A stretch of 64,000 nucleotides of DNA from Ophelia neglecta (lineage: Eukaryota), in assembly GCA_965285935.1 (NCBI GenBank), contig OZ260662.1, positions 44,330,001 to 44,394,000 of the forward strand, given 5' to 3'. A model generated the notes under the pieces. The model was not told where the DNA came from and did not search any database. It saw only the letters and a program-made list of their open reading frames with translations. The position numbers and the translations under genes are program-made. Shown piece after piece: positions 35,479 through 63,500 of this stretch. Position 1 is the stretch's first letter. Every line of letters begins with the position of its first letter.

Positions 35479-37017
35479 AACAGATAATACAGATGATAAA
35501 AACAATTACAATAACACTTACTCAATGTAGCGCTCAGTGTCGCGATTATTTCACTAAGCCTTTGATTCAAACTGCAGTAAAATAATTTAAACATGTCTTT
35601 CCAAGGCAAGGGGACGTGTAATGAAGAGGGTATTGTTATTGTTTACTTTTTAATTAATTACTGCGCATGATATCTTATCCTATTTTGATAATAAAGACGA
35701 CAAAATACCTGTTTCTGATCAATTTTATGATTAGAAATCTACCAGCCATAAAACCGAATAGGCATTAAACCTTGAGTGATCTTACATACACAGAATACAC
35801 AGAGAGTCGGAACACTCACCTATTCGGAGGCACACTTCAGCAGTCGATCACCACCCTTAATGATTGTCTTCTAAGATGTGCCGTAGATGGAGTTTGCCAA
35901 GCGGTGGACTTTGACCGTCGAGGCGGCGGTTCCTGCTGGTTTCACTACGCTAATACTTCATGTTCAATGGAGAGTAGTAAACCTGAGTGTAAACATTTAA
36001 AATTTGTCAACTGTTGTAAGTGTGCAGCTTATCTGTTTTTAATCGTTTCTTTTCTTCAGATATAGTGAGATGATTTGGAAGCCCGAAAATCAATCAGGAA
36101 ATAATCCATTTCTATTATTCTTTAGCTACGACAACAACCTCAACCGCAACGTCATCCGCTACAACCATAACAGCCACTACCACATCCACTGCAACAGTGG
36201 TGACAACCACAATACCCACCACGACAACCACAGCACCAGTGGTGACAACCACAATACCCACCACGACAACCACAGCACCAGTGGTGACAACCACAATACC
36301 CACAACGACAACCACAGCACCAGTGGTGACAACCACAATACCCACAACGACAACCACAGTACCAGTGGTGACAACCACAACACCCACCACGACAACCACT
36401 ACACCAGTGGTGACAACCACAACAGCCACCACGACAACCACAACACCAGTGGTGACAACAACAACACCCACCACAACCACTACGGCAGGGGTGACAACCA
36501 CAACCCCAACCACGACAACTACTGCACCAGTGGTGACAACCACTTTATCCAATGGTTCGTACGAAAGACCAATTTGAAGGCAGTTGTTAGCTTTAGGAGC
36601 AATTCAAGCATGTTTAAAGCCCAGTCCCAATAGAATGGAGCAAATGATAAATGTATTTACATTTTAATTAAAGGCCAATGGTCCCGAATATTAAGTAAAG
36701 GAAGCATTATAACATCTAATTTCAAATACGCATGCCCACATTTGAGAACGAACTAATAAAGTGATGTTATTTCATTGACAGATATCTCCCAATCGCTAGA
36801 TATGCACATCTTAGGCGGCGTCCTTCAGGATGCAGCCATTGATACAGATATCAAATGTTTAATCGCCTGCATCAATGACGTCACAACTACATGTGCCGGG
36901 GTCGACTTCGACGGCAACACCAACCGCTGCTGGTTCCACACCACGGCAACCAAGTGTAACACACTGCTCGCGAAAGCAAACTGTTCAAACTACCGCCTGG
37001 GTGCTTGTACTGGGTAG
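33995..37017 (+). CDS. Gene A: secreted chitin-binding-like / PAN(Apple) / mucin / PAN protein, 375 aa
   Basis: Exons: 33995-34070 (signal peptide MSRLHVSTFWTLFLCSLFQDNTKAQ), 34280-34444 (6-Cys CBM14-like), 35794-36015 (PAN), 36126-36554 (Thr-rich) and 36782-37017 (PAN, TAG). All introns are GT-AG phase 1 and the joined frame is open for 1128 nt. AATAAA at 37044-37049. Confidence 0.88.
35427..35477. repeat. (ATT)n microsatellite in gene A intron 2
   Basis: Visible trinucleotide run. Confidence 0.95.
36197..36543 (+). repeat. Coding 42-bp tandem repeat ([14 protein letters not shown]), ~8 copies, mucin domain of gene A
   Basis: The unit GTGGTGACAACCACAATACCCACCACGACAACCACAGCACCA repeats nearly perfectly; one unit is 3 bp shorter. 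Confidence 0.95.
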
Positions 37018-38967
37018 ACTCTCGTTTGTACATTCGTTGAAATAATAAAGCTTTTAAATTGATATTTCTCTTTATGGGTATCCTGAAAATCACCCTGTAA
37101 TCTTTTACTTTGTGTCAAAACATTGGACCAGCGTTACACTACGTCACTTTTCAAATAACCAGGTATTTCACTTTGAACATGAAGCATTCTTGTACTGAAT
37201 TTAAAACTGTCAGTCAATTTTTCAATATTGTAGAGTAACACATAATTATATCTTCGATCTGAATGTTAAAGAGCTTAACATCCAAACGATTTCTAAGTAG
37301 ACGTAATTTCATTTCTTTCGTCTGTTTCCTTACCCATGCAAGTTGATGCAAATTTTGGCAGTTTGATATCAGCATAAACTTTTAAATACACTTCCATTCT
37401 GATTTATGAAGCATTATTTCTTCTTTTCTGTCAACGTGCTTCATTAAAATATTCGTAGTCTCTAAAAATCAAAAAAAAATTCTATAAAAACTACTATGCA
37501 CATTTGATGATGCCATATATCAATGTCGTTCGTAATCTATGAACAAACGAAGGAAACAGTATATATTTAGAGCTTTTCTAACAACCTATTTGGAACACTG
37601 CCTTCTTGATCCTAACCCCAACCCCAACCCTTGCTATGTTTACAATACCTTATATCTTGCTTCTGCATGAGTCTCGTATCTGCAATTTTGAATCAGATTT
37701 TACATTATTTCCTGTTCATGACCTTTATGCCTATAAAAATCTATCTCTCATCAAATAAACTATTGAGCACCGATCAATCAAATAAGTTGGTGAAAAGGAA
37801 AGTATCGATGTAAATGTACAGTGCTAAACTTTTCCGCATTCAATGTTGATTTGATATGTTAAGCCGTTTATTGTTATATAAATTTATAAGCAAACAAATT
37901 TTTCATATACATGTTTCATCATTCCCATGTAAAAGGGCAAAAATGGGATGAAAAATGATTATGCAATCTTCCTCATTTTTTTACTCCGCAAGACGTCCGA
38001 TATATTTTCTGAATATCGTTATGGTAAGACCGAGATGTAAGCACGTTTATCTGGGCAAAATTCGGGGGATTACGTAATCCCAAAATTAAATCGCCCATCC
38101 GAGAATTCTGCCAAAAGCTGTACAAGAAAAATGTATTGTTATTTTTGCGACAAAACTAATAATGCAGATTGTTCTTAAAGGTCTAGAGCCCAAAAATTTA
38201 TTATTGTAACTTATCAAGTTAATGTCGCTCATTTATCGGATGTACGGACTTTGAAGTACAGAATTTGATATAGAGGAAGTTAGGCTTATCAGGTTTCCAA
38301 ATTGATGTCAACACTAAATGAATAATTTTGTTACGGCTTCAATAGTTTAACCTTGAGGGTCGTGTAATACAGCATTCAAATACACCTTCTCAAATGGGTA
38401 GAAAGCAGATCACGATATAATAAATCAGCATAGAAAGCATGCTTTGAAATAAGCATTGCCAATCCGAAAAATTCTGTGCACTAAGTTTGGACGGGCGCTT
38501 CTCTTATGCGAATCGTTACATGAATGGTTTAGAATTTTTATTTTTTTATTTACATACATTAAACATAAAAACAAGTATGATAATTCTAATCAAATACAGT
38601 GTCTGTAGTTGAAACTTTTGTTCCAAATTGGTAAAATGTCTTTAAAATTAACAAGTTTTGAAAGTAACATATTCCAATACCTTAGTTTGCACATTGTTTC
38701 ATCAAGGCTAAATGATTTTGTCAGCATGGGACTAATATTGTTTTAACACCAGTTTACATAGATACTAGGCCTATACAAAATTATGCTTATTAGCACATTC
38801 CAAAATTTAGAATGGATGTTGTTACATGTGAATCCTAATACAAGATGTTTCCATTGTATGTTACAATTTATGCGTTCACCTATATAGATATCATTCTCTT
38901 CCACTACATTCTCCGTTTTTTCCGTTTTTCCGCTGATAAAAAATGCTTCCAATCTTCCAATTGTCTT

Positions 38968-39250
38968 CGTGCATCCGTTCTTCCAACAATTTTCCGTGCT
39001 TCCATTATTCCATTAAGTATCCGTGCCTCCGTTTTGTTAAAATATTTCTTCGTTCATACATTCTTCCTATGTTTTTTGTGCACACGTATTCCATTAATTC
39101 TACGTGTTTTCATACTTCCAACATTTCTTCCTCTTGTTATTCCATTCCTTCATAGTGCATCTGCTATTCCATTAATTATCCGTGCATCCGTAATTGCAAT
39201 ATTTCTTAGTGCATTCGTCTTTACAATAATTTTCCGTGATGCATCATTCT
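38968..39250. repeat. Degenerate ~27-bp minisatellite
   Basis: About 10 units resembling CGTGCATCCGTTATTCCATTAATTATC. Confidence 0.75.
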
Positions 39251-39483
39251 ACACACGTGTGGCCAGCGGGTCTGGATATAGGGTTTAACTCTTGTCCTTG
39301 CCCTCCTCACAGCTGTGCCCAAACGGCCTTTATTTAAATGACCGAACCCATAACTTAGTCATCCACCAATGCCAAAACCAGAGGGTCTGGTTACATAATT
39401 TAACCCTTGCACTAATCGTCCTTTAGATCCTCTCCCACGTGAGTGGCATGTCTAATGGTTGGTTTAAAGATCAAATTCGAGTT

Positions 39484-39720
39484 TTATGTTTCACCGTTGG
39501 TACCAAATAGTAAAGGGACGACCGAGGCGTATGTATCATTTGTGAAGGAAGTCCAGCATAGCGCAAAGCGGTAGCAGAGAAAAAAGTTATGACACGGTGT
39601 CTCACAATGACACAGTGGACTATCAATGCAGTGATGGTTAAACAGATGACAATATAAAGCGCTGCATCCCAGTCTCATTTGGGACAATCATATATTGAAG
39701 GGTCGTGAGCCCAGGCGGAA
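39484..39720 (-). mobile_element. Non-LTR retrotransposon ORF2 C-terminal fragment
   Basis: MRLGCSALYCHLFNHHCIDSPLCHCETPCHNFFLCYRF...LLFG matches the Cys/His-containing C-terminal tail typical of CR1/L2-related LINE ORF2. Confidence 0.7.
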
Positions 39721-39804
39721 GTAACGAGAAGGTGAGGGAGGAGCAGGATTTGGTTTAAGTTTAAAAACGTAAAGAGAAACAAGATGGTCAAATGGTTCTG
39801 ATAA

Positions 39805-39981
39805 CAGTGAAACCTGTAAATTAAGACCACCAAATGGACTGGAGAATACTGGCCTGATTTTAGAGGTGGTCGGTTTAGACAGGTTATTTAGCGTTGAAAG
39901 TATAAGCAACACTATCATATTGGTGGTCTGAATTGACAGGTGGTCTGATTATAGAGGTGTTCTTTAAGGCATGTTTCACCG
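39805..39981. mobile_element. Tc1/mariner (pogo/Tigger-like) MITE, copy 2
   Basis: Terminal inverted repeats CAGTGAAACCTG...CATGTTTCACCG followed by TA, with internal GGTGGTC subrepeats. Homologous to 24761-24932. Confidence 0.75.
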
Positions 39982-42094: not shown

Positions 42095-42217
42095 CACAGG
42101 GCCTTTTAAAACTGAAATCTCCCATATAGAGTCACTATATACTATATCAAAATAACTTATTTTTATATAGTATATAGTGACTCTATATGGGAGATTTCAG
42201 TTTTAAAAGGCCCTGTG
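42095..42217. mobile_element. 123-bp foldback MITE with perfect 53-bp arms and an 8-bp target-site duplication
   Basis: Arms 42095-42147 and 42165-42217 are exact reverse complements. GTGGAGGG is duplicated at 42087-42094 and 42218-42225. Confidence 0.92.
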
Positions 42218-42379
42218 GTGGAGGGTATATTCTCCACACCAAAGCACCGGGGGGGGGGGGGGCATATTGGACAGTCACACCCAAAGACATCACCAATCCA
42301 AGTCCTTGGATTATACGTTGACTCGGGCCTCGCTATAATATGAACCACCAAACAAGCAACCCTCATCATGTTTCATCAA

Positions 42380-44137: not shown

Positions 44138-44150
44138 GCCACCGCCATGG
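44138..44150 (+). promoter_or_regulatory. Consensus Kozak context of the gene B start codon
   Basis: GCCACCGCCATGG directly precedes a signal-peptide sequence. Confidence 0.8.
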
Positions 44151-47100
44151 TTTCACTCTATTTTCTTATCTTCGGATATGCCACCATTGCATTCGCACAG
44201 GACGGTTTAAACAGTCTGAGAGAAGACAACCAACCACCAAAACTTGCCGAATGTAAGATTATTTGATACTTATTTATACATTTAAATCAATAGAAAATCA
44301 ATGTTTGAATATTTCCACTAGCCTTAAATCTGTTTTAAAAAGTACCACTTTCAGTAAACTGTTCATATTATATATTTATGTATTAAGTATGGCGATTCAA
44401 ATTTTATGCTATATTTAACGTGCACCGCTGTTCCGACAATCGCTGTGACTGAAAGTTTGCTCTATCCGTTATCAGATTTTGTCAGTCGAGAAGATGGGTT
44501 CTACCTGGCCCCCAGTTCTGTGGTTGCCAAGGACGTGACGGAGGAGGCTTGTCTCTCAGTCTGTCTGATGAATCCCTCCTGTTTCGCCGTCGACTACGAC
44601 TTCCAGTCTCGGTCCTGCTATGATCACTCCAAGGAGTCCTACTGCGAACTGGACTTAATGAGACCAGCCACCTACAGGGTACATTACAGAAGAGTCCCTT
44701 GTGTCAGAAGTGAGAGTAGTTTTACGAATTTCATGTGCATAAAACACATTTAAAACCACCATCAAAATATCAATACCACTTAAGAAGGGCATTATAAATC
44801 TAGGAAGCGAGTGCGTAAAAGTTGCCACCTTTCTTTGGCGAATATATGGGTCGGATGAAAATAAGTGTTGCCTCAGTTTATATCTTTAACTAGAAACTAT
44901 TTAAGTAATGATGGAACAATATGGTGAAGTAACATTAGGTTCAAACCTTATTTGGCCATAATGATGCAATTACAACAATTTTCTCTGTTGGATATGTTGC
45001 AGGCGAAAATGGTGACCTAGAGGTCGGGTTCAGCTCCTTATACCAACAGCAGCGCGTAAATGGGGGTCGTCTGGCTTGCAGTTCCTGTAACGTCGCTTTC
45101 TGCATGAGTCTGTGTCGAGATAGCGTCGAGTGCCGTTCCATCGACTACTCGTATGACCAGCGCATGTGCTTTCGTCACTTCCGGGATACCCCTTGCCTTG
45201 ACCTTGTGCGCACAGATAACGTTGGCTATTTACACGCCGAGAAAGAATCTTGTGCATTTGGTAAGAATTTATTGACGGCTTATTCGTATGCTGCATGCTT
45301 ATAGAGCATCGAGTGCTGAGCTGTACTAGTTCTGTTTAGCCGTTCTGTGGCAGTAACATAACTGTAATGATTTATTTTAAAAACAAAGAGGGGTTTCGTC
45401 TTTGAATAAGCACAAATGCATACTTTTGGTCTACCTGTCGAGTTCGTCTTATCATAGTGGCCCTAGGTCTAAAACAAATCGCTCTGGATGAATTCATGAC
45501 TCTTTTTAATGCAGATATTGACACTGAGGACAATTCCGCTACAATGGAAGCAGGTAAGATGCCCATCCCGATAGAAACATATTGGTTCAGTTATGGCGAT
45601 CGCGTTTGTTCATGAGAGCTCGCAACGGTTACCCGACTAACTGTCTAGTTATTTCCGATATGAACCAACTGATAGATCTAAAATTAAAATAAAACACATT
45701 AGCATGTATATGAAATACACGAATTTAGTACTATGTGCCTTCCTAATTATTATGATATATTTAATTGGTGGAAAGTAAATGAATTACACCGTATTTACTA
45801 ATTAATTTACAGGCATAGCAATAACGGAGCCACCCCCCATAATGAACATGTCATCGGAGACAGCGTTAACGGGTAGGCCTAACTTAGCATTGGGTTTGTA
45901 ATAGTGTGCAGAGAGCTAGGGGGCACATATTTATGGGTTATTATCATTGGGACCATAAATTATTTTATTGGATCTAATTCATAGAATACAATCATACATA
46001 GGTTGTAATTACTCAGTAAGAAATGACAGTGGCCCATTACAAAAGTACGGCGCCTAATTAGTGGAGCTATTTTAGCTGTTATTTGTTTTTCATTTTCCAA
46101 TTATTCACCGCTAATTAGGTCTATAATAGGATGCAACCTCGGAGGACACGTTGATAATGTATAACCTAAGACTATTTCAGTGTATACCATTCCTTCATTT
46201 ATTAATTTAAGTCAATGGTTTTAGGTATGATTGGAAAAATGGAAGGTTTTCGGATAAGCGGTGGGGCGATCAGGTTTGGAAATGTGACCGAGCGGCGTTG
46301 TGCTATGTTATGTGCCCAGCAAGTGTCCAGCCAATTCACTTGTAACGCCGCTGACTACAATCTGGTCACCAATGTTTGTTTTCTGCACTCATCGGAGAAC
46401 GCCTGCAACCCCCTCGAACCCAACTTAATGTACAACCACCATAGGAGAGTAGAATGTGAAGGTACTTGATATGTTACATTCCACGCGCAACCAACGTATC
46501 GATGTGTCTAAAATATCACATGTAAAGGAAACTATTACAGAATTCAACATTCCTATTACTACGATGTTGAGCCTACAATACGTTAAAGGAATTCGAAAAG
46601 CTTTACATACCAACGTCGGTTTATTTCATCTTTCTCGTGTAAACAGAGACCGTAATTGACTACTGTGCGGCCACTTCTTGTCTAAATGGAGGAACGTGTA
46701 GAAATGTATTGGCAACTTACCAGTGTGACTGCGGTCCGAGGTACACAGGAAGAAACTGTGAAACAGGTAACACATATATACTTAATATTCACATTGTTTA
46801 ATTTTTGTTCATTGTCAAGTTACCCTAGTTAGTCCTGTACAAGTGTTTTTTCAAACGTTATTCGTAGGAGTATTGTTTACCAGCTTATTATATATAATTA
46901 TATGCATCTGTAATGTAATATTGTACAATAATATGTATATTATTATCTCTATAATAATATTATTTACAATGGTCCGTTACCATCATTCCCTAGAAACCTG
47001 TAGAAATCCTTTAAAGGTGATTCTTAAAGCTCGCAGTCATTAAATTTTATTCTCTATGTACGATTCTTGAGCCTCCCCCCTCCCCGCCAACAAAATAGGA

Positions 47101-50100
47101 CGGTAATTTACCCCCCTCCCCCCGACAGAAGATTGAAACTTAACACCACCCTAGCCCGCCCCTCCCCCAAAATTATGTAATATCTTAATACGACATTTGA
47201 GCAAACTACAATTTTACTATCATTGCTCCAAATCCCCTCAAAAAAATAAGGCCTACAGGATTTTTCCTATTATATCTATCAGCGTGGTATTTCGTTACCA
47301 GCAAACGACTGCACAAGACTCTTGTGTGAACGTAATAACATCCACCCTAAAGGCCTCGTGACATACATTGTAACTAGACAGTTTAGCATTAATAGTTTGT
47401 ACTACTGACTTAATGAACTACATATATGATTATGAGAGTTTCGAACACAGTACAGTAAAGTATACTCTGATATAAGCCAATGCCTATTTTCCATATTAAA
47501 TAACATTGTCACGTGGTTGATTTGTTGGACAGAGCTTGATCCCTGTGACAGCTCTCCCTGTGAGAATGGAGCTACCTGCGCGAGTGCTGACGACGAGTTC
47601 GTGTGCGAATGTGCTGCAGGATACACCGGAACTACCTGTGATCAAGGTTAGCAAACAAGCCAGGGAAGTCACGTGTTGTCAAATAATATAAAACAAAATT
47701 AAACCTCTTTATAAAATTCGAATAGCAAGAGGGAATCAAACAAAACTTAGAAATGTTATTAAAGATGGTTCATATAACTATGGCGTGTTTTATTTTTAAT
47801 TTTTTTTTGCCTGTAATAGTAACTTGCAACAGAACCTTGACGAGGACACCGTGGGCCTTTTTACCTCTGATGTTACCCTTGACAGTATGGAAATAATCTG
47901 TTAATTCTGGAGTCAATATGTTTAATGTTTTATCTGTTAGAAATCAATGAGTGTGATCCCAACCCTTGTGTGAATGGAGCGACTTGTGTGGACGAGATCA
48001 ATGACTATAGGTGTAACTGTTTAGTTGGATTCGATGGCATCAACTGTCAGAATAGTAAGAACTGATATTACCTTGTTTTAAAAAGCACCAAATGGATACC
48101 CAATAGAGGCCTTGATATTCTGTGACCAATCACAAAGTTTCCTCAATATATTATGGTGTGAATGATTACAAGACACTACCATTACTTCATAGACATTATT
48201 ATTTTGATTGATTTTACAACATCCACAGTTTTTGAAGTTGATGTACACCTAGCAATGAAACTCAATCATTTCCATGATATATTAATCTACAGATATTGAT
48301 GACTGTGCAAACAGTCCTTGTCAGAACGGAGCTCAGTGTATGGACGCGGTCAATGACTACTTCTGTGCCTGTCTGCCCGGCTACGAGGGAACCAACTGCC
48401 AAACTAGTACGGATATTAACATGTCATCAAATGTTAACTCATAAAATTATTAATCAAATAAGCATTTCTAATGCATAAATACTTTTATTTGTGTTAATTC
48501 ATTAACCATTATCAATGAAGGAGTGAATAACTGTTACATTACTAATATTCATTTGCGTGTTTACTAAGAAATTGATCGCTGTGTTGCCAATCCTTGTGGA
48601 GACCGAGGTACATGTGTTGACGGGACCACCGCGCACACATGTCAATGTTTGGCAGGCTATATTGGAACAAATTGTGAAACCGGTATGATATCTCGGACGG
48701 TTCTTACCTCCGGGACTGCTTGGATAAACATGTTGTCTCAGACTCTTGTTCTATACTTTTTTCTGCAGTAATTTCTTTCTATTATTTCACCAATATTCAG
48801 TTATTTATCTTATGTTTTGCATGAATTATATTTATCTTGTCATTTTAAAGTGCACTATTTATTTATAATTTTGTTGTCGTTTACTTTTTCATTTTTATGT
48901 TATTTTAGTTATAAATCATTTATATATATATTTTTTAATTTCTCCATTGAGTTACACATTTTCCGTTCGTTTTCTTCTTTCATTTAAGTTTATTTTATTA
49001 TTTTTCTTTGAGCAACTTATTTTTCTTTTCTAAGATACTCAAGGTTCCACTGCTCATGACTAACATAAAATACATTAATAATAGAATTTTTTTTCTTGAA
49101 ATCCGTGTAGATATAGATGAATGTGATCCTGATCCTTGTGAGAATGGTGCTACATGTGTGGACGGTATAAACGCTTACACATGTGAATGTGCAGCTGGCT
49201 TCGAGGGGGTCATATGTCAGATAGGTAACAGCATTTTAAACGATTCGGTATTGCCTCGCAACACCTCCAGGCCACAATATCTAGTACATGTAATTACATG
49301 TATCATGTCCAACTGTGGATACACCTGTCAGTGTGTTCGTCCTGTCACGTGACATCCTAGTTCGTTTGGCATGTGATAGAAAGAAAACGGCAACGCCGGG
49401 TTTCTCGATCTGCACACTATATACGAGTCATGGTATATCATGTGGTTTTTAGTGAGTTCTATATAAAGAAATAAGGGAGAAGAATATCCAACCTTTTTAT
49501 AGGATGAGGCCAAATATGTTTAAATTCGTGGAATGGTTTACTGTAAGAGCAAGAAAAAAAATAGCTATATATATATAAGTAAGGCGTTTGAGAAACATAA
49601 ACTTAATAATGGAAACTTATCATAGTATTATGTGTGCTTTTGCAAATTACTGTGCTTGCGGTTTTATCTTATGTAGGCATTACTAGTATTATAGTACGTT
49701 TGGGCTTAATTGCGTTCTCCTGAGTACGTGTAAATATACATGTAATTTACAGTATAAATGTACAAGTTTGTACAGATTTCATTGAGATAAATCTATCTTT
49801 TTTTGAAGCTTTTCGAATGCCCTTTTGAATCGACATACATCTGTTGTGTTGCCTCGAACAGAGTTAAGGCTTTGACAGACCTTTTGAGTAATGGGTGCAA
49901 TAGAAACATAAAGTTTCTTATAGTGTCGACATAATAGCACTATAAACATAATAGCCGTTTAAGAAAACCACTGATAGGAAAAAAGTCACACTCGTGTTAT
50001 CATTGGATCATTATTCCGCCCGTTACTTTACCCATGCTAACGGTGTGCATTTCACCCTGCAGATATAGACGACTGCAACCCCGGACATTGCCGGAATGGA

Positions 50101-53100
50101 GGGCTATGTGAAGATGGCATCAATACCTACACCTGTGTCTGTGTAGAGGGCTTCACCGGCAACGATTGCCAGATAGGCAAGTACCAAACTCTGCCTAAGA
50201 AATTAATCACAACAATAAAATTAATGTACAAATATTTCTTATTTTCGTACAATCATTCTGTTACTTAAACCCATGGAAAATGATATCGCAGATTTTCTTT
50301 TCCAATCATATGCATGAATTTTACGTTAACCATGAAATGTTAGACCCTATATTGGTGATCACTCAGTTGAATGAAAGTGTGAATGTATGATTTATATTCA
50401 CCGGATATCAGACATAGATGATTGTGTCGATACACCCTGCCAGAACGGAGGCAACTGTACAGACGGAGTCAACGCCTTTACTTGTACGTGTGAGGAAGGT
50501 TACGAGGGAGAATTGTGTCAGACAAGTAAGTCAAATCAGACCACCCATTTTGGGAATTTTTGGGAAACTATTTCATTTTCCGTTTAACCGCCCTCCTACT
50601 CTCATCCCCCCCCCCCCTGCTCCTTCTAAATCCCTGGTTCTATCCACTTAACAAAACCATCATTTATTACATATAGAACCGGTAATCATAATATCCATCA
50701 ATACAAACGTCTCGATGCAGTATTTTAGAGTCGTGAGAAGAAAAGGTTATTTAACCTGCTCTCTTTTTGTACTTTGTACCTCGGATAGGATAAATGGCGT
50801 GGCTACTTAGTAGTTTTCTAAAATCCAGTCCGATCCACATTTCAGGATCATATCACAATTTCTCCTTAATTCCATCTTTAGGCCTATACTAGATGTATAG
50901 TTCGCCTAAACCTATTAATATCAAGTATGGAAAATAAAAGGTTTACAATGTTTATACGTCCTTTCCCTTATGTTGATAAAAGGGGAGATTAATGTGTCTG
51001 TCTTGTCTATGGTTTTAGTTACAGATGATTGTAGGGATGATCCTTGCGGAGGTCGAGGCCGGTGTATGGATCTAGACGCTGATTTCATGTGTGATTGTGA
51101 TGCGGGATACACGGGAAAATCTTGTCAAACAGGTATTTACCTCACTACCAATTTCAATATGAATCACTACATACAAGTTATCAGTTTTATATACTTCCTA
51201 ACACTCAACAACTTTTATTTTCATTTATTTTGATATTTTATTTTGATATTATTTATAGACATAGATGATTGTGTGGAGGACCCTTGTGAGAACGGGGCCG
51301 TCTGCGTCGACATTCTGAATGGATACGAGTGTAACTGTGTCCCTGGTTACGAGGGAGTGAACTGCGAGACAAGTAGGTCAAGCCATCCAACTACAATAAC
51401 CTTTGAACCCACTTTTATTCGCCTTTTCTTATCCGTTTACTCAATGATGTGCATTCAATAAAGATCTAGTGAGTAAAGAAAATTAAAGTACAATCACCAA
51501 TGGCATCTCTTAAACGTTTCCCCTCAAATGGGCAATGCTTACTTTTTTGGTATTTTTATCTATTTTAGATACAAACGAGTGTTTGAGCGAGCCTTGTGAG
51601 AACGGTGCAACCTGTAACGACATGATCAATGGTTATTACTGTACATGCGCTGCTGGCTTCATCGGCGACCATTGTGAGACAAGTAAGTGGCGTCGGTTAG
51701 ATATATACAGGACACTATACATTTATAGACAAAATGAAATAATTGTAAGCGTTATTTTAGTGTCTTGATCAAAACATTTGGTTTTTTTACTGTTAATCTG
51801 CTATACGGTTATTAGAAAATGATCCGTCCATATTTAGGGTTATATCAGTTGAAAATGAATCACTTTACAATCTATATCCTGCTTCAGACTTTGATGACTG
51901 TGCTAGCATGCCGTGTCAGAATGAGGGTGTGTGTCTAGACGATATCAATGGCTTTAACTGTGGCTGCTTCGCTGGATTTGTCGGACTACAATGTGAAATA
52001 AGTAAGTTAAAGGTAGAAAAATAATAACTATTAAATTTGCTCCTATAAAAAAGAGTGGTTTGATTTTATTTCTAGTGATTGGGACTATTAAAAATATAGT
52101 ACTGTCAATCGTTTCACTGGTGCCGTAAAATCTTTACTGTTTAATAAGCACTTTTATTTGCACAAGCCCTTTTGCATCAACATCAGCTTGTAAAGTCCTA
52201 TCAGTCATAACTTGAAATAACATTATAATCAACTAAATGAATAATTATTGTTACATGAACGCATGAGAAGTTTTTAAGGGAAAGCGAGCTGCATAACTGT
52301 TAATTTTAAATTCTTCATAATTAATGATTTGTAACTCAGACGAAGACGATTGCGCTGGTGACCCGTGTATTAATGGAGGCACATGTACGGATGGCATAGC
52401 CGAATACAATTGTCAATGTCTGGAAGGTTTCACAGGGCAACAGTGTGAATACAGTAAGTTAGTGAATTAATTCACAGGTCGAAATATTGGGGCATTAATT
52501 TTCTTTGCCTAGTTTTGTGTACAGCTTGTTGCGAAATAAATAATCTAATATTCAAATATATCATAGGCATTTATACGCATTAAAACATTGAAGTATATTT
52601 TACACATTCTTATATGAAAGGTAAACTTGTTATATTTATCATTTTTCAGTTTTGATAGATTGATATGTAGTATTCACAATTTTCGCTGTAGACATAGACG
52701 AATGTGAGGCGAATCCTTGTGAGAATAACGGGACCTGTATGGACCTCGTCAACATGTATACCTGCATGTGTCTACCGGGCTACACCGGCATCGACTGTGA
52801 AACTGGTAAGGATCACTGGCGAGGCTAGCGAAATGTCAATGGGTGGGTGGGGGGGGGGGGGAGAGAGGGGGCAGGTACTTATTGTATAGCAGGCTGCTGA
52901 GAAGAGCACCTAAAGCTGTTAGTTATTCTGTAAAAAGCTTAATATTGGTCGACTGGATATGATGGCGGATTTAGCGTAGCGATGATAACCGCCGATTTAT
53001 GGGCAAATCGGCCAATATATTTTAAGGGTCAAATTATGGAACAATCAGAAACCGCCAAGTGTTCTTGTTTCTAAAATAATTGAGCGATTTAAAAGACGTA

Positions 53101-56100
53101 GTTTTCTAGGAATGCCCCCATTTTATCTGTTTAACCCTTAGCATACACGGAAAGTAAGTTTATCAATATTAGACATTTATATCAAGGTCAAGGACAAACT
53201 AAAATACGACCAAATTCCTTGTATGTGTGTTCCTGTTAGAATATTTATTGTCTCAGTTTGACCTTGAAATAAGACCCAAGGTCAAATTCAATGGCACTTC
53301 TTTTTTCCCTGCATATGAATCCCCACTGATGTTACATATATTTTGCTTAACTATCTTGCACCGTGAAGATCTGTGACACTGAGAGCATTACAAATGTACT
53401 GTTACTGTTTGAAAATTTGTGAGGCTTTTTATTTCATCAAATATGATTAAATTGCTAAGCCTTTAGATACATTTTGTACAAAGTTTTTATACAGTACACA
53501 TGGTGCAATATTAGAGTATATGGCCTGTTGGATTCTGGGGAAAAAATGTTGATTTGTTGATATTCTGGACAGGTCTTTTCAGTACACTATACATGGTTAC
53601 ATAGTGGCCTACATTTTATAAACCTAAAGAGAGGAGACAATAATGAAAGCACGTATTTCGCAAGGCTTTAGCTTTTTAAAAAGTGTCAAAATTAGTAATT
53701 CGTGAACAAACGACGACTTTGTGACAACATGATTCGATGAGCTCAGTTTTGCTTTGCAAGCTGAGCTAAAAATGCAATTGATTTGTTATTTTCAATTAAT
53801 GACCTCCTATTGGTCCGAAATAAATCAGTGAGCCTCCGAAAATTGCCCCCTCCCCTATCCCCCCTGGTAATAGTAGTGACTTGGCTCTTCGGAACACTCC
53901 TTTTTTTATCATGGACTCCTCGGTTTGACCACTACCTTTAGCCACACTCTTGGCCATCCTCTTTCCGTTCGAAGACAAAAGGACAAGGATCTTTTGTGCA
54001 ATGGAGGCAGTAACCAGAGATATTTTCAGGCTATATGCAAATGCTGAACTTGCTTTGATGCCAATGACCTTTACATACAAATTTTATACGCACGCATACC
54101 GCAAGATTTTGCTATACTCCACTTGTAATCATAAAATGTCCAGCTTCCGCCTTGGTGTCACAGCGAACAGATAACGCCATGAGCGTTTAATATTTTTCAA
54201 TCCATGACACGAACGTGTGTGCATAATTTTCTCTTTAAAGCAATAGTAATTTAAAATGGCGGTGACTTTCCCACGCACGTACTTTGTCATTATTCAGATA
54301 TCGACGAGTGCTCAGAGGGGCCCTGTCAAAATGGCGGACTTTGTGTCGACGAAGTGAATAGATTCTTGTGCGTCTGTCCTTCAGGATACGAGGGCTTGAC
54401 CTGTGACACTGGCAAGAACATGGGACTTGTCCTAATTCTTTCCTTTTTCATATTGCATTTCAACAAAAAGATGTAAAACGTATCTCAAGTACAGTTCGCT
54501 CTAAAGTTAAGTTTATTCCTCAGTATTGAAATATAATTATGTTTTGTTTATATCAGAGACAAATGAGTGCGCTCCAAATCCGTGTCAGAATCTTGGTATC
54601 TGTGAAGACTTGGTGAATGGTTATAACTGTACCTGCTCCCCGGGGTACGTCGGGGATAACTGCGAGATAAGTTAGTATATACTACCTCGAGCTACAAACC
54701 TTTTAGTTTTGAAAATTCTTTTTCAGAACTTCTATAATATAATATAAGAGATCTCCGCACTTTACACTTTCACCCTAAAATGATGTAGAGGACTGCCCGC
54801 TGCCCTCCTTGTACATTGCATTATGTACTTCGAAAATAGGTTGCTCCTTCCTGGCTGAGTATAAGAAATTTATAGAATAAGGAATGCTTATAAATTGCGT
54901 TTCTTTCGACAAGGCATGTTGACGGCCTGGCCAGACACGTGTGTGAGCGGCGGGATCCTAAACAGGTCTCTCACGACGGCCGAGTCGTGTATGGAAGCCT
55001 GCATGGCAAGTGACGAATGCTTCGCCGTCGATTTTGACATGGTGGATAACGACTGCCTCCTCCACACAACCTTGACCTTCTGTAGTGAACGTGAACACTG
55101 CCCCGGAAAAATCCATTACCTCTTTGTGCCATGTTTACCAGGTAAGAGATTTGTCCATCGGTTGACAAACCTGCAGCATATATATGTCTGGGTTAAATGT
55201 TAGAGGCAATTTTTGGACTTGACTACGTTCGTTGTCAAATTCTCACTCACCAATAATCAGACGTTTCAATGTTTCAATGTGTCAGCAAATTTTATAGCCC
55301 GGACTAAAACAAATAATTTATTCTTGGTTGTAACCCTTACGCCACTTGGGGATATCTTCTCCCAAGGTGACAGCAAAGTCCTTTTAAAGTTCCCAGGTAA
55401 TCTTGTTAGTTGGGAGGGCGATGTGTCTTCACGTGATCGTAAACCAATAAGGAAATCAGCGCAACAGTTTCCGGCAACGCCCGGACATTCTTAGTTCAGG
55501 CATCCTAAACACAGTTATTTTGACGTTTCCACTCAGAAAGGAGATGACTCGGGGGTCATCCGAGCTCTCTGACTAGTATATTGTCATTTCCCGAGTTTTT
55601 TTTGATTAAATTCAGGCATACGTTTTGATTGATATCAGGTTATAATTCTCCAGCTGCCTTTTCGATAACATGGTGTAACCAGCCGCTGATATAAGTTAGC
55701 GTAATTTACTTAGATTAAGCCACGAAGAAAGCGTTAAGTGGAGAAGAATAACCCGGGTGTTCAAAACACGTTCATCCGCGCATATATTTTCATTGCGGCA
55801 TTATTATATTTGCCATTTAATTTAAATTAACCATTGCTATGCACCCGCTTTGCGGCTTTCTGTGATATTGTGCAGCCAGAGCGCTGTCAATGCTGCATTT
55901 TTGTGCTATTGTGCGACGAACACTTACAGTGTTAACTTACATGGTCAAAACATTTAACGGGCTCTTTAAAGTGGACCATGCTCGACCATTCAATGACTCC
56001 GGAAACGCAGCATGATGTAGATTGATATTTAGGCGTTTACCTGAGGCGATGATAAAATAATGGCGCTTGACCATTCGTGTTTAATATCTCTTGATTATCA

Positions 56101-57652
56101 GCGCATGTCATTGTCCTATTTTTATTGGTACATATTGATTGTGATTACTATTCAGGATAGGCTTAATTCGTGTTAAATATATTCCCATCAGGCGTCACTG
56201 CTGATGACCAGATGAGGTACGTTAGACGATCCTATTCTGTGACTGGGGGCCAGGTTGTGTCGGACCGGAACTGCCCTCGCTGCAGTCCCGACATGTGTCT
56301 TAGTATCTGCTACTTCCAGGACGATTGTGAGGCGGTCGATTTTAACATGGCAACCCTCAGATGTTCATTGCACACCAGTAATACAGTTTGTAACCCCATT
56401 GAACCAGAACCAAATACAGTCCACTACACAAGAGAAATCTGTGGTATGTCCGGCAATTTCTCCACCAACCAGAAATATTATTAAAAATGAACTACCGACA
56501 CTGGGAATTATAATTTCTGTATATACTTTATATTATTAATACATACTTATAAAACAATAGCATCCTTGGTTAAATTTTACATGTTGGTTGACCTCGATTC
56601 TTATGTATTTGATTATGATTAAAACTCTTATATTTACATACGTAATTAAGGTGACTAGAACAAACAATCGGCTAATTGTCGACCAAGTATAGTATTCATT
56701 GCATCAAACATGTATGACATTACAGAGAACCAGAAGACAATAGCGCCGCGTGGGAGCTTTGCAGCGGGGAACTTACCGGCACCTACAAGTGCGTCGTAGT
56801 ATAGTTAGCCTTTTTTTCTCCACTTGTGTCTAAATTCCCTGTGATTAACAATGTCGGTGTGTCTTAATTCCCGTATGTGTCACAATCATATGGTTTATTC
56901 GGAATCACGCAAACAAGGTGATCGATTTAGTTTTTCCCTTGAATAGCATTTTCTATGTGGAGTTCTTTTTCAAATCATAAATATTAAACTGAAGGTTAAT
57001 TTTTTGCTGGCTTTCTTTTGTTTAGGGTCATTAATTAGGAGTTTTAAATGATATGCCTATTTCTACAACGACGAGTCGCTTGGTGCATCAAGTGGCCTGT
57101 CAGTTGAAACTGAAATATTTTATGAATTCAGACTGCCATTTTACTACGTATTGCAGGCATATCACCCGGGTGGCAGGCCTATCCCGGAAGGTTTCAGATT
57201 GGTGGACGACAGTATGAGATGCCTAATCGGGGGGCCACCCACATGTACACCGGTGACCAGTGTCTATCTCTGTGCGAGGATGACGAACGCTGTCTGGCTG
57301 TAGACTACAACTCAAATGATGGCACGTGCTATGCTCATTGGACAGAGGAACGGAAGTGTGGGCCGCTCCTGGACAACCCAGAAATATATCATGTTAAAAG
57401 ACCCGGCCGCTGTGGTAGGTGTCTCTGTAACTCAATTTATCATTACATATGTTTACTAATAAAGAATCAGTTATGAGAAAATGGAATATAAACTTACATT
57501 TTAGCCAATAGCTAACCCACAAGTTTACAAATTTAGCGCTACATGAAGACTTCTAATAACATCCTCGTTTTTCAGAGTTCATATTTAATGAAGAAGGGGA
57601 AACTAGTATGCCTTACCCAGAACCAGATCTCGTTGGAGTAGAGCGAGAGTAA
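44147..57652 (+). CDS. Gene B: secreted PAN(Apple)x3 - EGF x16 - PAN x3 protein (fibropellin/Notch-type EGF repeats), 1213 aa
   Basis: 27 phase-1 exons. Signal: 44147-44252 ([17 protein letters not shown]). PAN: 44476-44709, 45003-45260. Linkers: 45515-45553, 45813-45872. PAN: 46225-46461. EGF: 46647-46766, 47533-47646, 47941-48054, 48293-48406, 48569-48682, 49111-49224, 50063-50176, 50412-50525, 51019-51132, 51259-51372, 51569-51682, 51888-52001, 52340-52453, 52692-52805, 54298-54411, 54557-54670. PAN: 54914-55141, 56192-56443. Linker: 56726-56788. PAN: 57157-57414. Terminal: 57576-57652 ([25 protein letters not shown]). The joined frame is open for 3642 nt. AATAAA at 58013. The linker and terminal exons are the least certain. 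Confidence 0.9.
46647..54670 (+). repeat. Array of 16 EGF-like exons (15 of exactly 114 nt), mostly calcium-binding type
   Basis: Each exon encodes one 6-Cys EGF, e.g. [38 protein letters not shown]. Confidence 0.95.
52870..53890. mobile_element. Non-autonomous DNA transposon/MITE-like element, copy 2, in a gene B intron
   Basis: Colinear homology with 18949-19875 over ~53180-53890. The left boundary is uncertain. Confidence 0.65.
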
Positions 57653-60218
57653 AGCCTCACTATACAACATACCTATGCTGTGTTCACCCTATTGACATGA
57701 AGGTTTACATGGTATAAAAGGCCTCAAAGGGAGACTGGACTACAATAGAAGTATCGCGTTTTTGTTGAACAAAAACAATATATTTTTATACACTACGAAT
57801 ATAAATCGAAGTGGAAATAAGTAGGGGCTAAAAAATAAGATAAACCCATATGTTCAAAAGTCGCTTTTCATAGTTTTCAAAAGGTCATAGATTATTTTCT
57901 TTAATCGACCACGAAATTAGTTCCGATTTGACGTATACTTTTTGTATCAGCACTATTGAATTTATTTTATAAAACACTACGGAAATGTAAATAAGCGGTG
58001 AAGGAAATATTGAATAAAATACATTGGTATACATGTTCGCGCGTTGTTTTCAGAGTGCGATTGAGAACTTTTTTCTATATTTATGATTTTAAATCGATAA
58101 AGAAAAGCAAATCAGGTGTAAAACTACGTTAGAACCAAAAATTTATCTCAAATAACAATAACAGATAGATTTTTTTTAAATTGTGAAATCTTTATTTTTT
58201 GCTTATACGTTTTAGGTCAAAGTATTATTTATAACATTGGGAGTTAAATATTATTAGATTTTAGCAATTAATAGATATCGCCTTGCAAAATAAAGACCTA
58301 ACGAACTGTCTTGACATTTAGGTGTGATAAGAATAGTGATCATTCATGCATTAATTATCTTCATCTGGAGAAAATTCAGATATGGTAGTTGTTTCATAGA
58401 ATTTACTAAATTTAAAGTATTTTATTGACTAATAAGCATTGTAGTCGTGATATTCGTAACTGTGTTTGACACTGTGATTTTGATCGATATGCATTAAAGA
58501 CGACATGGGTCCTATAACTGATCCTTGTTAAACACAAAATTACAAGTAGGCCTATGGAGCATTGCTTCATTTACAATACCAGTGACATTAGTAGAAAGAT
58601 ATGTTGGATATTGCATTTTTCTCTCTTAAGTTACATATTCAAGGATATACATTTTAATTAAATACATACCTAAGTTCAGATACAAACGCTACCAAAATAG
58701 CAGCACGAGAAATAAATAATGAAAAAGTTAGGAATAGGAAGCCACCATCAGAATTCACGCAGAATTAGTCATTTTAAGGATAACCATTGACTGCGCCCTT
58801 AAGATATGGGTCCGACAGGGATAGCACTATATAACTCAGTCCTTAATAAATTAAACCGTGTAGTAATGCACTATAAGCACCGAACAAGACACTATGGAGA
58901 TAAATATTGCATAAGTTAGGCTAAGCCTTTAGTTTCTCAAGCACGAATTAAGCAATTATTTATCCAAAATATGAAATCAGTATGCTATTATTTTGCCAAT
59001 CATTCAGTAAGAAACTATTTGCTACAGTATATAGGGTATGCTTGACTACTGCATATGGCAAATTGCTAATTCATTCGTAAGACAAAAAGTTATGTTAGAC
59101 CAATGTAATGTTTTAAAATTCAGGAAAGGTGTTGCAAATTTATAAATGTGCAAGTGTTTCAGGGGGGCACCCTATTTGTTCAGCAATTAGGTTTTGGTTC
59201 AATGGCGCTTCGATAATTCAGGAATCGGCAATTATTTCCTCAAAATTTCCGTTATTTGTTCTCAACTTTTAAATTTGTAAATTGATTTTGAAAGAGCGTT
59301 GCTCAATAGAAGGTGTCTCGTATGCCTCTGCATTACATTATTTTTCAAAAAACAATAAGTGACAATACGCGGTTTTGCCACACCGTGTTTTGGCGAATTG
59401 CAGCATTTTTAAGAAACATTTATCTAAAAAACATGAACACCTTATTAAAGAATAGACATATACAAAAAATATCAGACCCAAGAAGGAATGAGTGGCTTGA
59501 TTACGAATATGCGTTAAAATTTATATTAATAACCAAATCGTGATGTTTGAAAGGGGGTAAGCTTTACTTTGGTGGGAACTCAGGAAGGGACATCTATAGT
59601 GCGGAGAATTCAGTAATGTAGGTATTTGAGAAATAAAAAATCCCCAAAAAAGTAATTTGGAGGTTTTTTAGAAAACCTAGAAATGAAATTGAGAATAAAC
59701 TGGATAATTCAGCTTCATAAAACAGGGATTGCATGAACAATTCTTTCCCCATATTGTATGCATAAGATTTAATGCCAACCGCAAAATTCGTTTAAAACGG
59801 GAACTCAAATAAAATTTTAAAATCATTGGAATGTAAAATATAGATACTGTCCTTTATTTGTGTCTTTAGTAAATTTCATTCATAGTTAAGGTCGTGTAAA
59901 TTGAATTTATTTTCGTATATCACCGTGTATAGATCTACCTGGGCTTGTGATAGGCCCTATACCTAAATACATTTAATGTGGAGTTTAATTCTACAGTCAA
60001 AATAATAATAATTCCATTGCATAGATATAATGACATGTACAGAGCAAATTTTACTACCAATTTAAATATTATTGCTGGTGATTATAAATTTTATGTGCAT
60101 TACCGCAGATTGTCATATTCAACGCCTGGGGCTTGGAACAGGGACGGTTCTCGATATGTAGGTCATTCTAACTTTAGTTCAATCAGATTTGAACTCACAA
60201 GGCATGAAATCGGTGACA

Positions 60219-60532
60219 ATGAACTTATTAAATATCGTTTTGTTTTTCCAGTGGATATTCAACAATGTGTTGGAATTAACCGCTCAAAATGGTAAGTTTT
60301 GTTTTATTGTTACGCGTATACAGTCTACAGATTAAGTGTGAATCTTGATTGCCAAAAAGTAGGGGGACGAATGTATCACATATTTGCAATATGCTTCATT
60401 GTCGCCTTATATAATACTGAATATATACGCACATATCATATATTTACATGTGCAAGAATGATTTCTATACTTGACTATTGCCAAAAGCGATAAATATTTT
60501 ACGGTTTTTAATACATTATTATCATTAAAAGT

Positions 60533-60575
<43 letters not shown>

Positions 60576-63500
60576 CATTATTATTATTATCATTATTATC
60601 ATTATCATCAATATGAATAAGGCAATTCCAACTCGAATTGGGAAGAATTACATAAAATGGTCCAATATTTAATCCAACATTGGCAGAATAAGTCGTTTAT
60701 TTGCATAGTTGGGTTTTGCCAGCGTTACTAAATTGAATATGGTAGCGATTATTCCCATGGAGGTGGGATCTACCAAAAAGAAAACTATTAACATGAAATT
60801 AACATTTTTGTGTTTATTCTATTGGAGAACACTCACATATACAGTAAGGTTAGAAGATATAAATCTACAAACATTCCAGACTACCCTACTTCCGTTTCCG
60901 TGTTTTCCACCAAGCATACTTTGATTTCGATACATAATTTGTCTAAGGCATCTCTTTATAAAGCTTGCTATCATAACGGACGCAGCGGGCTCGAGTATGC
61001 CAGGCTTCGTCGATTCTTCTTTTTCTATGTATCCATTATTAGTATATCATTATCATAAAAATATTATAAATATTATTATATCTGTAAACGATCATGTGGT
61101 CATTTATCACAAAATCAGATAATTTTTCTCTATTCATAAATGCACTTCTCATAACAGAAATTGCTGCTACATACATTGAGGGCTATGGCATACCTGGTGG
61201 TATAAAGAAGAGAGAGTTCAGAACTCTATTACAATGTTTGCAAGCTTGTGCAAAAGATTCAGACTGTTTGGGTTTGGATTTCAACACAAGAACGGAAAGT
61301 TGCTACTACCACCCGTCGAGTACAATTTGTAACCAACTGGAGAAGAAAACGAATTGCCTCCACATCCAGATGACAAATTGCTGTATGTTTATATTTACAA
61401 TGCTTTACCTGATTTAGATAAGCAACAAAGATATAAGACTGGATGAAACATGTTTGTTGCACATAAAGCTCTTATATAACAGTTTATAAATGACTCGAAT
61501 TCCTTACATATTATTGTATACCGTTATTGACAGCGACCAGTAATGTTGATGAGGACAGTGATACAACGACAAGAAGGGTTCAAACAACCTCAGCCACCAC
61601 GACAATTCCCACAACCACAACGACTTTTCCAGCAACCACAACGACTACTCCTACCACCACCACGACTATTCCTACCACCACCACGACTATTCCTACCACC
61701 ACCACGACTGCCCCTACAAGCACAAAGTTGTCGACAACAACGCAAGTTCTATTTACAACGAGCAACAGTCCATCTGACTTTGAACCTTCCAATGCTTCAC
61801 AGAGGACTGAATCTCAGTCGAGCATTGACACCTCAGGTCAGTACGTTTCTGAAGTTTAAAGATTTGGAAAAGCCAGGTGTCTTCTAAAAAGAAACCACAA
61901 GTCGTCGGAGTCATACAAACTCCTCGTATAATATATATGACTCGGTCATTACAGCCATATAGGCCTATTTTTCTCTATTTCAAAGCCTTTCATGATATCT
62001 AGTCATATTTATTTCCATCGGTCCTGCCATCAGCGTACCTGTTTACTGCACCAGGAATGTATGTCTCAGGCGGATATTTTCGCCACCAGGGTGTGCGACA
62101 ACAAGAGTGTCTTGACGCATGCGCCGCTCAGCCTCTCTGTTTGGCTGTAGATTACACAGTCCCTGCTGGAGGATGCTACTTCCACGGGACTGACACCTAC
62201 TGTGGTCAATTGAGAAACCTGTCTAGTAGCACGCACTACAAACGAGCCCTATGTGTTGTTGAAGGTAACCCAATGAGAACGCAAGATAACATAAACAGGA
62301 CCAAAGCTAATTGGCATACATTCGAAAACACCAAAATTTTCACATTGTCTTTGATAACCACCTGTTTGATATTTGGATTTTTAGGTTTATCTCTTTTTAT
62401 GTCGTTCATGCTGCTTTTCCAGGGAGTAACCAAGTAATAGAGATGTACCGAGGAATGTATTCCCCTGGTGATAGTTTGCTATGTGAACAAGGTTGTACAA
62501 TAGAAACGTGTATGGCAATGTGCGAACTCGTTGACGAGTGTGTTGGCGTCTCAATCAATACAACATCCGGGACTTGTCTGGCAAACGCCCCTTCCAATGT
62601 ATGTCTCCTAAACCGCAGAAGCCCAGATGTGGTTCAGGTTAACTTAGGACCGTGCTGTGAGTTTAACTTATGTTCTTTATAATCAGTGATATAAAATCAA
62701 ATTCCTCTGTGAAACAGAGTACATTGTATGCATCGGGCAAGAGAGTGTCCCCTTTCTAAGACAGACTTTTAGGCGTGTATTAGTTCTCACGAAGGTGGCG
62801 GTGGGAGTGGGGGTTTAGCAATTTTGGGGAAAACAATTAGGTTTTTTTTAAGCCCCCGCCATCATAAGTGTCGTAGTTCTTGAACCCCCCCCCCCCCCCC
62901 AGCTTACGCGGTTTTACGTGTCAGTGTCCTCCTGGGTTTACCGGAACTAACTGTGAAACAGGTGGGGAACAATACAAATCTCAAGCGGAATTCCCATCCA
63001 GGACATTTATCATTACATTAAGGATTTCCTTTCTAGATTATAAAATTGAATATACATTATAATGCACGATTTTTCTGATGACTGCATGGCAATTCATGTC
63101 CCTGATCAACTTATTCACCGCAGATATTGATGAGTGTCACAGCAACCCATGTCAACATGGCGGGAGATGTATTGATGACGTGGATAGCTTTATATGTGAT
63201 TGTCAGCCGGGTTTCTTTGGTTCAGATTGTATCATTGGTAACGTTATGGTCAATATAATACAGAAGAAATTGCCGTACACTTCTTACATAAACATATGTC
63301 GCAGTCAGACATATGTGCCTTTTCACCATGGGATTTTGCGGATTAATGTACTTTCATTTTAATATGAACATATAACCAAATTTGGACATCCAAATCAGAT
63401 ATATTCAGTTGCATCCCCAAATGCTAACTGGACGGGGACTTTTATGCAGGAAGATAATCAGAGCAATGAATAAGTGTTCCGTCTCTTATAGACAGTGATT

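Follow-up and report, generated by a model that had tools for sequence, protein, structure and literature searches.

This analysis deals with a stretch of 64,000 nucleotides of the Ophelia neglecta genome (GenBank assembly GCA_965285935.1, contig OZ260662.1, positions 44,330,001 to 44,394,000 of the forward strand), which is called the window throughout, and with the PAN domains encoded in it, some of which hold an odd, seventh cysteine. This cysteine has been found to go with one particular lysine of its own domain and not with neighbouring mucin-like exons. The window sits on contig C2 of the 762-Mb genome and contains 11 PAN exons, spread over three plus-strand genes termed A, B and C. An AG acceptor stands at the start of all 11 PAN exons, and a phase-1 GT donor closes ten of them, while the second PAN exon of gene A closes with a stop codon. 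No RNA record is listed for gene A, and the three public runs that match it are DNA-like contigs from one sample without splice joints; the exon models are therefore built from splice signals and open frames and not from transcripts. Gene A is a single open frame of 320 codons in four exons, which encode a likely signal peptide, a PAN domain, a Thr-rich spacer and a second PAN domain followed by the stop. Residues are numbered after the second of its PAN domains, A2, so that the odd cysteine is Cys67. The features of gene A are as follows.

33995..34070, plus strand: exon 1 of gene A, with the ATG, a likely signal peptide (hydrophobic N-terminus read from the sequence) and the phase-1 donor GTAAGA
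35794..36015, plus strand: PAN domain A1 of gene A, 7 Cys (PAN_1, E 6.7e-5)
35817-35819, 35979-35981 and 35988-35990, plus strand: codons of His8, Lys64 and the odd Cys67 in A1
36126..36554, plus strand: Thr-rich spacer exon of gene A, 142 amino acids, phase 1-1
36782..37017, plus strand: PAN domain A2 of gene A, 7 Cys, PAN fold in the model, closed by TAG
36805-36807, 36973-36975 and 36982-36984, plus strand: codons of His8, Lys64 and the odd Cys67 in A2
37044..37049, plus strand: AATAAA, a possible polyadenylation signal 27 bases 3' of the gene A stop

The spacer consists of 87 Thr, 5 Ser, 14 Pro, 18 Val and 10 Ala without any Cys (T/S/P 106 of 142), and the mature gene A chain holds an even total of 14 Cys. 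Two letter differences in the public-run contigs, the loss of 3 bases within the Thr-rich exon at window position 36512 (contigs of one run) and an Asn-to-Asp change of A2 residue 59 at 36958 (contigs of all three), are alleles or strain differences; the codons of His8, Lys64 and Cys67 are untouched by the differences listed. Genes B and C provide the remaining PAN exons.

44147..57414, plus strand: gene B, the comparison set, with a likely signal exon, PAN domains B1-B3, 16 EGF exons and PAN domains B4-B6
54914..55141, plus strand: PAN domain B4, 8 Cys, the two extra Cys at the positions of His8 and Lys64
60204..60291, plus strand: exon 1 of gene C, with the ATG and a likely signal peptide
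61158..61382, plus strand: PAN domain C1 of gene C, 7 Cys, Gly in place of His8
61346-61348 and 61355-61357, plus strand: codons of Lys64 and Cys67 in domain C1
61534..61836, plus strand: Thr/Ser-rich exon of gene C, 43 Thr and 14 Ser in 100 amino acids
62034..62264, plus strand: PAN domain C2, 6 Cys, directly 3' of the Thr-rich exon of gene C
62423..62656, plus strand: PAN domain C3, 8 Cys, with an extra CxxC-type pair

The 3' end of gene B lies beyond the mapped part, and Lys64 and Cys67 are absent from all six of its PAN domains. In gene C, domain C3 is followed by EGF exons, and the gene likely extends past the window. The PAN cluster itself goes on beyond the window (contig C2:44394001-44426000, stretches L058-L061) with at least three further PAN genes; one of these, with five PAN domains, resembles Capitella CAPTEDRAFT_224151, and another, which is Trp/Ala/Pro-rich and has three, resembles Capitella ELU04495.

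By sequence and by fold, the domains of the window are members of the PAN family. All 11 exons match PAN_1 (PF00024) with E between 3e-7 and 0.03, seven of them above the curated cut-off, and the four-Cys PAN core (C-x3-C ... C ... C) appears as invariant Cys columns in the alignment. The model of A2 has a predicted local distance difference test score (pLDDT) of 94.4, with strands at residues 2-9, 39-43, 48-52 and 61-71 and a helix at 22-31. Foldseek has matched it to the N domain of HGF (E 5e-4, template-modelling score 0.70), and structure comparison has aligned it to the plasminogen PAN domain 4a5t (Z 11.0, root-mean-square deviation 2.0 over 73 residues), the HGF N domain 3hms (Z 10.1) and the leech anti-platelet protein 1i8n (Z 8.3). 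The best sequence match of A2 among solved structures reaches only E 0.0011, and no close relative has a solved structure. A protein database search with A2 alone gave no match at E 0.001 among 21 candidates, a profile gave five, and a search of the ESM Atlas with a homologue returned generic PAN clusters only. According to earlier work, the number of core Cys in PAN domains is four to six (PMC9249922; this and the other papers named by identifier are cited from excerpts). The apple-type third disulfide, which joins an N-terminal to a C-terminal Cys, is ruled out in gene A, as no Cys precedes the first core Cys. In place of the apple-type N-terminal Cys, Cys58 and Cys75 co-occur, and the disulfides are presumably C25-C49, C29-C37 and C58-C75. 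As Cys58 and Cys75 occur together in both the 6-Cys and the 7-Cys types, Cys67 would be left unpaired.

The Cys counts given by the earlier note, seven in A1, A2 and C1 (3 of the 11 PAN exons) and six or eight in the other eight, are accurate (B1 6, B2 8, B3 6, B4 8, B5 8, B6 6, C2 6, C3 8), and the extra Cys that it had pointed out before the last strand does fall into one alignment column, within KPECKH in A1, KANCSN in A2 and KTNCLH in C1. Conservation in relatives, which that note had named as a check on its proposal, is seen at the family level, with Cys67 kept in 74 of 150 subfamily domains. The subfamily is defined here by the four core Cys and Cys58 in domains that align through position 67, and its named relatives belong to the annelids Owenia fusiformis, Capitella teleta and Paralvinella palmiformis and to the brachiopod Lingula anatina. 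Six Cys are common to the whole subfamily, and the seventh comes and goes together with Lys64. Judged from the sequences, the odd Cys marks a common PAN subtype, which is seen in the Ophelia neglecta genome, Owenia, Capitella, Paralvinella and Lingula.

The set used for covariation comprises 150 subfamily domains (107 from the database and 43 from the genome), 74 with Cys67 and 76 without. Lys64 is present in 72 of the 74 Cys67 domains, the exceptions being one Arg and one Tyr, and in only 6 of the 76 others; His8 is found in 64 of 71 domains with Cys67 against 25 of 66 without. In a scan of all columns, Lys64 ranks first (p 3e-32) and His8 second (p 2e-10), with p values that ignore kinship. 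Position 71 of the Cys67 domains is occupied by Arg in 37 cases and by Lys in 22; since it takes both, the demand at position 64 is for lysine itself and not just for a charge. Cys67 has been gained or lost between equivalent domains of related proteins, and among 24 disjoint nearest-neighbour pairs that differ in Cys67, Lys64 follows in 21, is unchanged in three and goes the opposite way in none. The coupling recurs within domain types: the CxxC type contains five domains with both residues, six with neither and one with Cys8 instead of the lysine, and the 'CLM' type two with both and five with neither. Lys64 can outlast the loss of Cys67, while Cys67 without Lys64 occurs almost never. The idea of a Cys-Gln thioester has been rejected, as Gln at profile position 14 is uncoupled from Cys67 (17/49 vs 19/54 of the database domains).

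The earlier note had further held that 7-Cys domains occur only next to mucin segments. In the window each 7-Cys exon does adjoin a Thr-rich exon (3/3), but the 6-Cys domain C2 adjoins the same Thr-rich exon as C1, so exclusivity fails already there. Four of the 11 PAN exons adjoin a Thr-rich exon, and the chance that all three odd-Cys domains fall among them (p=0.024) is softened by two of the three sharing one gene. In the genome as a whole, 60 candidates were scored in a search with A2, of which 38 matched, and 93 in a search with a paralogue, of which 52 matched; twenty stretches of 10 kb around the matches on contig C2 were scanned with a profile, together with the window, and yielded 43 domains that align through position 67. 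Matches on contigs C1, C5, C9 and C12 stand outside this count, those inspected being 6-Cys types, and the stretches were picked by likeness to 7-Cys queries, so that the Cys67 ratio of 23/43 is not a genome-wide figure. Most Cys67 domains stand in tandem arrays at a distance from Thr-rich exons, e.g., three at contig C2:89.76 Mb and three at C2:44.405-44.407 Mb. Over the window and the 20 paralogous stretches, a Thr-rich neighbour accompanies 5 of the 23 domains with the odd Cys and 3 of the 20 without it (p=0.70). With the window set aside, the counts are 2 of 20 and 2 of 12, and two looser limits for Thr-richness give 7/23 vs 5/20 and 8/23 vs 6/20 over all stretches. In the database set (720 domain matches in 158 proteins, reduced to 123 subfamily domains and to 105 after dropping those more than 70% alike), Thr/Ser-rich flanks were counted for domains with and without Cys67 as 9/49 vs 2/56 (p=0.022), 17/49 vs 9/56 (p=0.04) and 3/49 vs 2/56 (p=0.66), and a second count gave 5/51 vs 2/56 (p=0.25), 16/51 vs 9/56 and 17/51 vs 11/56 (p 0.07-0.25). 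Within 14 proteins that hold both kinds, the flanks are even (12/28 vs 9/21, p=1.0). The database lean is thus weak, unstable and dependent on the threshold, and the odd Cys is not a mucin-boundary feature.

With this, the main statistical support of a mucin-specific disulfide polymer is gone. In a version of that proposal widened to the whole family, Cys67 would form interchain disulfides, with Lys64 and His8 only activating it, and any protein with at least two Cys67 domains could assemble into a gel or network although it lacks vWD and cystine-knot domains. The part that stands is the presence of an apparently unpaired Cys at each end of the gene A spacer, exactly one per end; the mucin-specific premise does not. 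Among the relatives, 18 of 32 have at least two Cys67 domains, many of those with a single one being fragments, and most full-length proteins have two to four. Precedents exist in factor XI, whose dimer is linked by a Cys of apple 4 that is bonded internally in kallikrein (PMC6899681), and in vWF, whose multimerising Cys are unexposed until assembly (PMC9737082), so that even partial burial of Cys67 is compatible with polymerisation. The slight preference of the database Cys67 domains for Thr/Ser-rich flanks likewise speaks for a polymer, but no association with Thr-rich exons is found in the genome stretches or within the mixed proteins. Position 67 looks partly buried, and in A2 the residues N66-C67-S68 form a glycosylation sequon (window 36979-36987; a sequon occurs in 4 of 74 Cys67 domains) that would place a glycan at the contact. 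Equivalent domains drop Cys67 freely, and the preference of Lys over Arg by 72:1 exceeds what electrostatic activation needs, a plain Cys-Cys link needing no lysine at all. A complex prediction for two copies of A2, made without alignment input, scored 0.17 against a mark of 0.32 and speaks neither for nor against a dimer. End-to-end disulfide polymerisation is the less likely course, and we regard it as unlikely. The two odd Cys of gene A might instead pair with each other and loop the Thr-rich spacer, with neighbours pairing in arrays, as the even number of 14 Cys and the frequency of proteins with two or four Cys67 domains would allow. Seemingly complete proteins with one or three such domains (P0057, P0021 and P0006 among the database relatives, and two three-domain genome clusters) are at odds with such a loop, which also leaves Lys64 unexplained and is hardly credible.

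The surroundings of Cys67 may be read from the residues that replace it. In domains without Cys, position 67 is taken by Val (20), Ile (13), Thr (13), Ser (9) or Ala (7), i.e., in 62 of 76, and is charged in 3%, compared with 20-22% at positions 63-66; these preferences suggest that Cys67 is partly buried. The extra Cys pair of B4 suggests that positions 8 and 64 touch, provided that these two Cys are bonded to each other, and Capitella ELT97281 (P0104), the sole Tyr64 exception, carries Cys at 8 and 67 within an even count of 10. Taken together, the pairs at 8/64 and 8/67 make positions 8, 64 and 67 probable neighbours, and His8, Lys64 and Cys67 would lie together at the edge shared by the first and the last strand. 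A sister PAN type without Cys58 has adjacent Cys at 66 and 67 (C-C-x-H), which possibly form a vicinal disulfide; it occurs in P0063, whose domain also has an N-terminal Cys, in P0006 and P0036 and in two genome domains (contig C2:26927605-26927760, L066, and 26941148-26941357, L067). With this sister type, the turn at positions 66-67 seems to have taken up sulfur chemistry more than once.

A purely structural role would see Cys67 as a small, beta-branched-like residue with a buried and inert thiol, over which the lysine packs or caps a turn. The residues V/I/T/S/A that occupy position 67 in 62 of the 76 other domains fit such a role, as does the repeated loss of the trait (35 changes on a weak tree). 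Packing, however, leaves it unexplained why Lys and not Arg is selected and why Lys64 is rare in the Val/Thr domains (6/76). Free thiols of secreted proteins are normally retained or paired (PMC7350206), and since Cys67 has nevertheless been kept across annelids and a brachiopod, selection is suggested. We rate a merely structural role as a shade less probable than the disulfide polymer, and likewise as unlikely. A metal site has also been considered, in which His8 and Cys67, with His69 or residues of a neighbouring domain, bind zinc or copper, Lys64 lies in the second shell and bridging could stiffen a matrix. The covariation of His8 with Cys67 would agree with this, and the Cys67 domains have His52 in 74 of 74 and His69 in 63 of 74 cases, but both are equally conserved without Cys67 (71/75 and 68/76). 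The tightest partner of Cys67 is a lysine, a poor ligand, and C1 lacks His8 altogether, so that a metal site is improbable.

We tentatively favour a reading, to which we give somewhat less than an even chance, in which Cys67 is a partly buried thiol that is activated or capped by Lys64 inside its own domain, and not a mucin-specific interchain link. The amine of Lys64 would sit on the Cys67 thiol within the domain, shielding it for secretion and lowering its pKa. Once in mucus or matrix, where conditions are oxidising, the two residues together would be reactive towards oxidants or electrophiles. The simplest product would be a reversible Lys-Cys bridge of the nitrogen-oxygen-sulfur (NOS) or sulfenamide type, with His8 perhaps serving as the base. 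On this reading, gene A would encode a small secreted mucin-like dumbbell with one Lys-Cys site per end, associating mainly through a binding face of its PAN domains. Such a face may exist: Asp41, Trp/Tyr/Phe50, His52 and His69, together with residue 70 (aromatic or aliphatic), hardly vary across the subfamily, whether or not Cys67 is present, and may constitute a glycan-binding face. Position 52 we take to correspond to the sugar-binding lysine of apicomplexan apple lectins. Lys-Cys NOS bridges form for the most part within one chain and between residues fewer than 10 apart, and they require no catalyst; an example with i/i+3 spacing is Lys207-Cys210 of Hox-A9 (PMC8964421). Lys64 and Cys67 have the same i/i+3 spacing in addition to their covariation, a likeness at the level of sequence, whereas NOS bridges are defined by N-zeta and S-gamma within bonding reach.

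More permanent bonds have also been weighed. In a self-catalysed lysinoalanine link, Cys67 would be converted into dehydroalanine with the help of His8, to which Lys64 adds within or between chains, as in spirochete FlgE, which forms its link from a conserved Cys and Lys of adjacent subunits by self-catalysis (10.1101/2023.06.13.544825). The strict combination of Lys, Cys and a potential base would suit this chemistry; no FlgE homology or fold link has been found among 50 structure-comparison rows, and FlgE needs ordered oligomers, which makes this route highly improbable. More generally, the His8/Lys64/Cys67 PAN domain could be a covalent cross-linking module whose Lys and Cys form a non-disulfide bond (NOS, sulfenamide or lysinoalanine), reaching from chain to chain where domains are stacked, which we consider as improbable as the metal site. 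If it were true, the dumbbell and the multi-domain proteins would cure the mucus, tube or cuticle of annelids and brachiopods, a way of curing that would be new for the mucus and matrix of invertebrates; the literature searched has yielded no description of a non-disulfide Lys-Cys curing chemistry for animal extracellular matrices.

Several points weigh against an activated or capped Lys-Cys site within the domain. Covariation reports coupling and not chemistry, and tight packing or a metal site would match the same pattern; we infer both the step from covariation to contact and that from contact to chemistry. The distances among His8, Lys64 and Cys67 and the burial of Cys67 are likewise deduced and not taken from model coordinates. 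The nearest-neighbour pairs are not proven independent, and a tree test (142 rows, 68 columns) gave no more than two independent pairs on supported branches, too few to correct for kinship. His8 is absent from C1 and six other Cys67 domains, and Lys64 persists in six domains without Cys67. Finally, the database domains do lean to Thr/Ser-rich flanks at the two thresholds with p=0.022 and 0.04, and many proteins of the family have a mucin-like make-up as a whole (P0005, P0159, P0104), which makes a mucus or matrix setting plausible and suits a role in mucus cross-linking.

Further observations concern the PAN genes and the remainder of the window. The 8-Cys domains at 45003-45260, 56192-56443 and 62423-62656 have an additional CxxC-like pair ahead of the helix, a type that recurs in Capitella and Owenia, sometimes with Lys64 and Cys67 (9-10 Cys). 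An internal intron near the conserved D-F-N/C-W-x-H motif splits some PAN domains elsewhere on contig C2 (26920210-26922446, 26938560-26939693 and 14941813-14941947), unlike the pattern of the window with one exon per domain. A Cys-rich module with a spacing like that of chitin-binding peritrophin is found N-terminally in P0154, P0008, P0026 and P0046 and C-terminally in P0155; the label of a chitin-binding CBM14 domain has been rejected for these terminal modules, as 13 proteins gave no Pfam match at E 0.05. Outside the PAN genes, the window contains a run of 201 N (25699-25899) and, at 2-1474 on the minus strand, an open frame of 491 codons that looks like the gag of a BEL/Pao-type retrotransposon.

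With the PAN/apple superfamily in general, the subfamily shares the four-Cys core and a helix on a five-stranded sheet; it differs in the missing N-terminal Cys, in the probable C58-C75 pair, in its near-invariant Asp41, His52 and His69 and in the optional His8/Lys64/Cys67 set. In the database relatives P0004 and P0022, arrays of Lys64/Cys67 PAN domains are joined to a trypsin-like protease domain (Pfam Trypsin), a fusion that echoes the architecture of factor XI and plasminogen. Cys67 stands at the start of the last strand, unlike Cys321 of factor XI, which lies in a loop, the hairpin between the two central strands. Apple 4 of factor XI and plasma kallikrein nevertheless shares with the present domains an extra PAN Cys that is unpaired in some paralogues and paired in others, Cys321 forming an interchain disulfide in factor XI and an internal Cys321-Cys326 bond in kallikrein (PMC6899681). 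Factor XI has one dimer link per chain, and the excerpt of that source describes no coupled lysine.

PAN has been reported among the phosphate-shell matrix domains of lophotrochozoans (PMC13425148), and for mucus several systems offer themselves for comparison. Gene A has, in its 320 codons, neither the vWD assemblies nor the C-terminal cystine knot of gel-forming mucins of the MUC2/5/6 type; its spacer fits a mucin Pro/Thr/Ser-rich region in composition but is short. A precedent for a short mucin that lacks vWD domains is FIM-A.1 of the frog, with about 400 amino acids (PMC7177656); reduction leaves its migration unchanged, and its assembly is probably due to lectin activity (PMC7350206). TFF1 and TFF3 are, like the present domains, small disulfide-rich domains of mucus with an odd seventh Cys that is free or forms dimers, and TFF1 is secreted with this Cys free but masked and has been proposed as an oxidant scavenger (PMC7350206). 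These trefoil factors have another fold, and their seventh Cys is found beyond the domain, with acidic residues masking it; Cys67, by contrast, forms part of a strand and is coupled to a lysine. FlgE shares a conserved Lys and Cys in an extracellular protein of polymer type; it is an unrelated protein, and its link joins adjacent subunits of the ordered hook.

The Lys-Cys NOS switches have in common with the present domains a Lys and a Cys that are close in sequence, within one chain and without a catalyst. No paper on the Cys67 PAN subtype or the Lys64/Cys67 motif has been found in a search whose scope takes in few subscription journals. An unpaired Cys that is kept in many secreted domains of annelids and a brachiopod and goes almost strictly with one lysine would be a rare mark, at the level of sequence, of a Lys-Cys pair with chemical activity. 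Most of what is known of Lys-Cys bridges, NOS switches included, comes from crystal structures, and selection on them is hard to test; here, by contrast, a conserved and covarying pair is seen, in sequences, in a secreted repeat domain, and this domain of 75 residues, with natural on and off variants in the same proteins, offers a direct test case for such selection.

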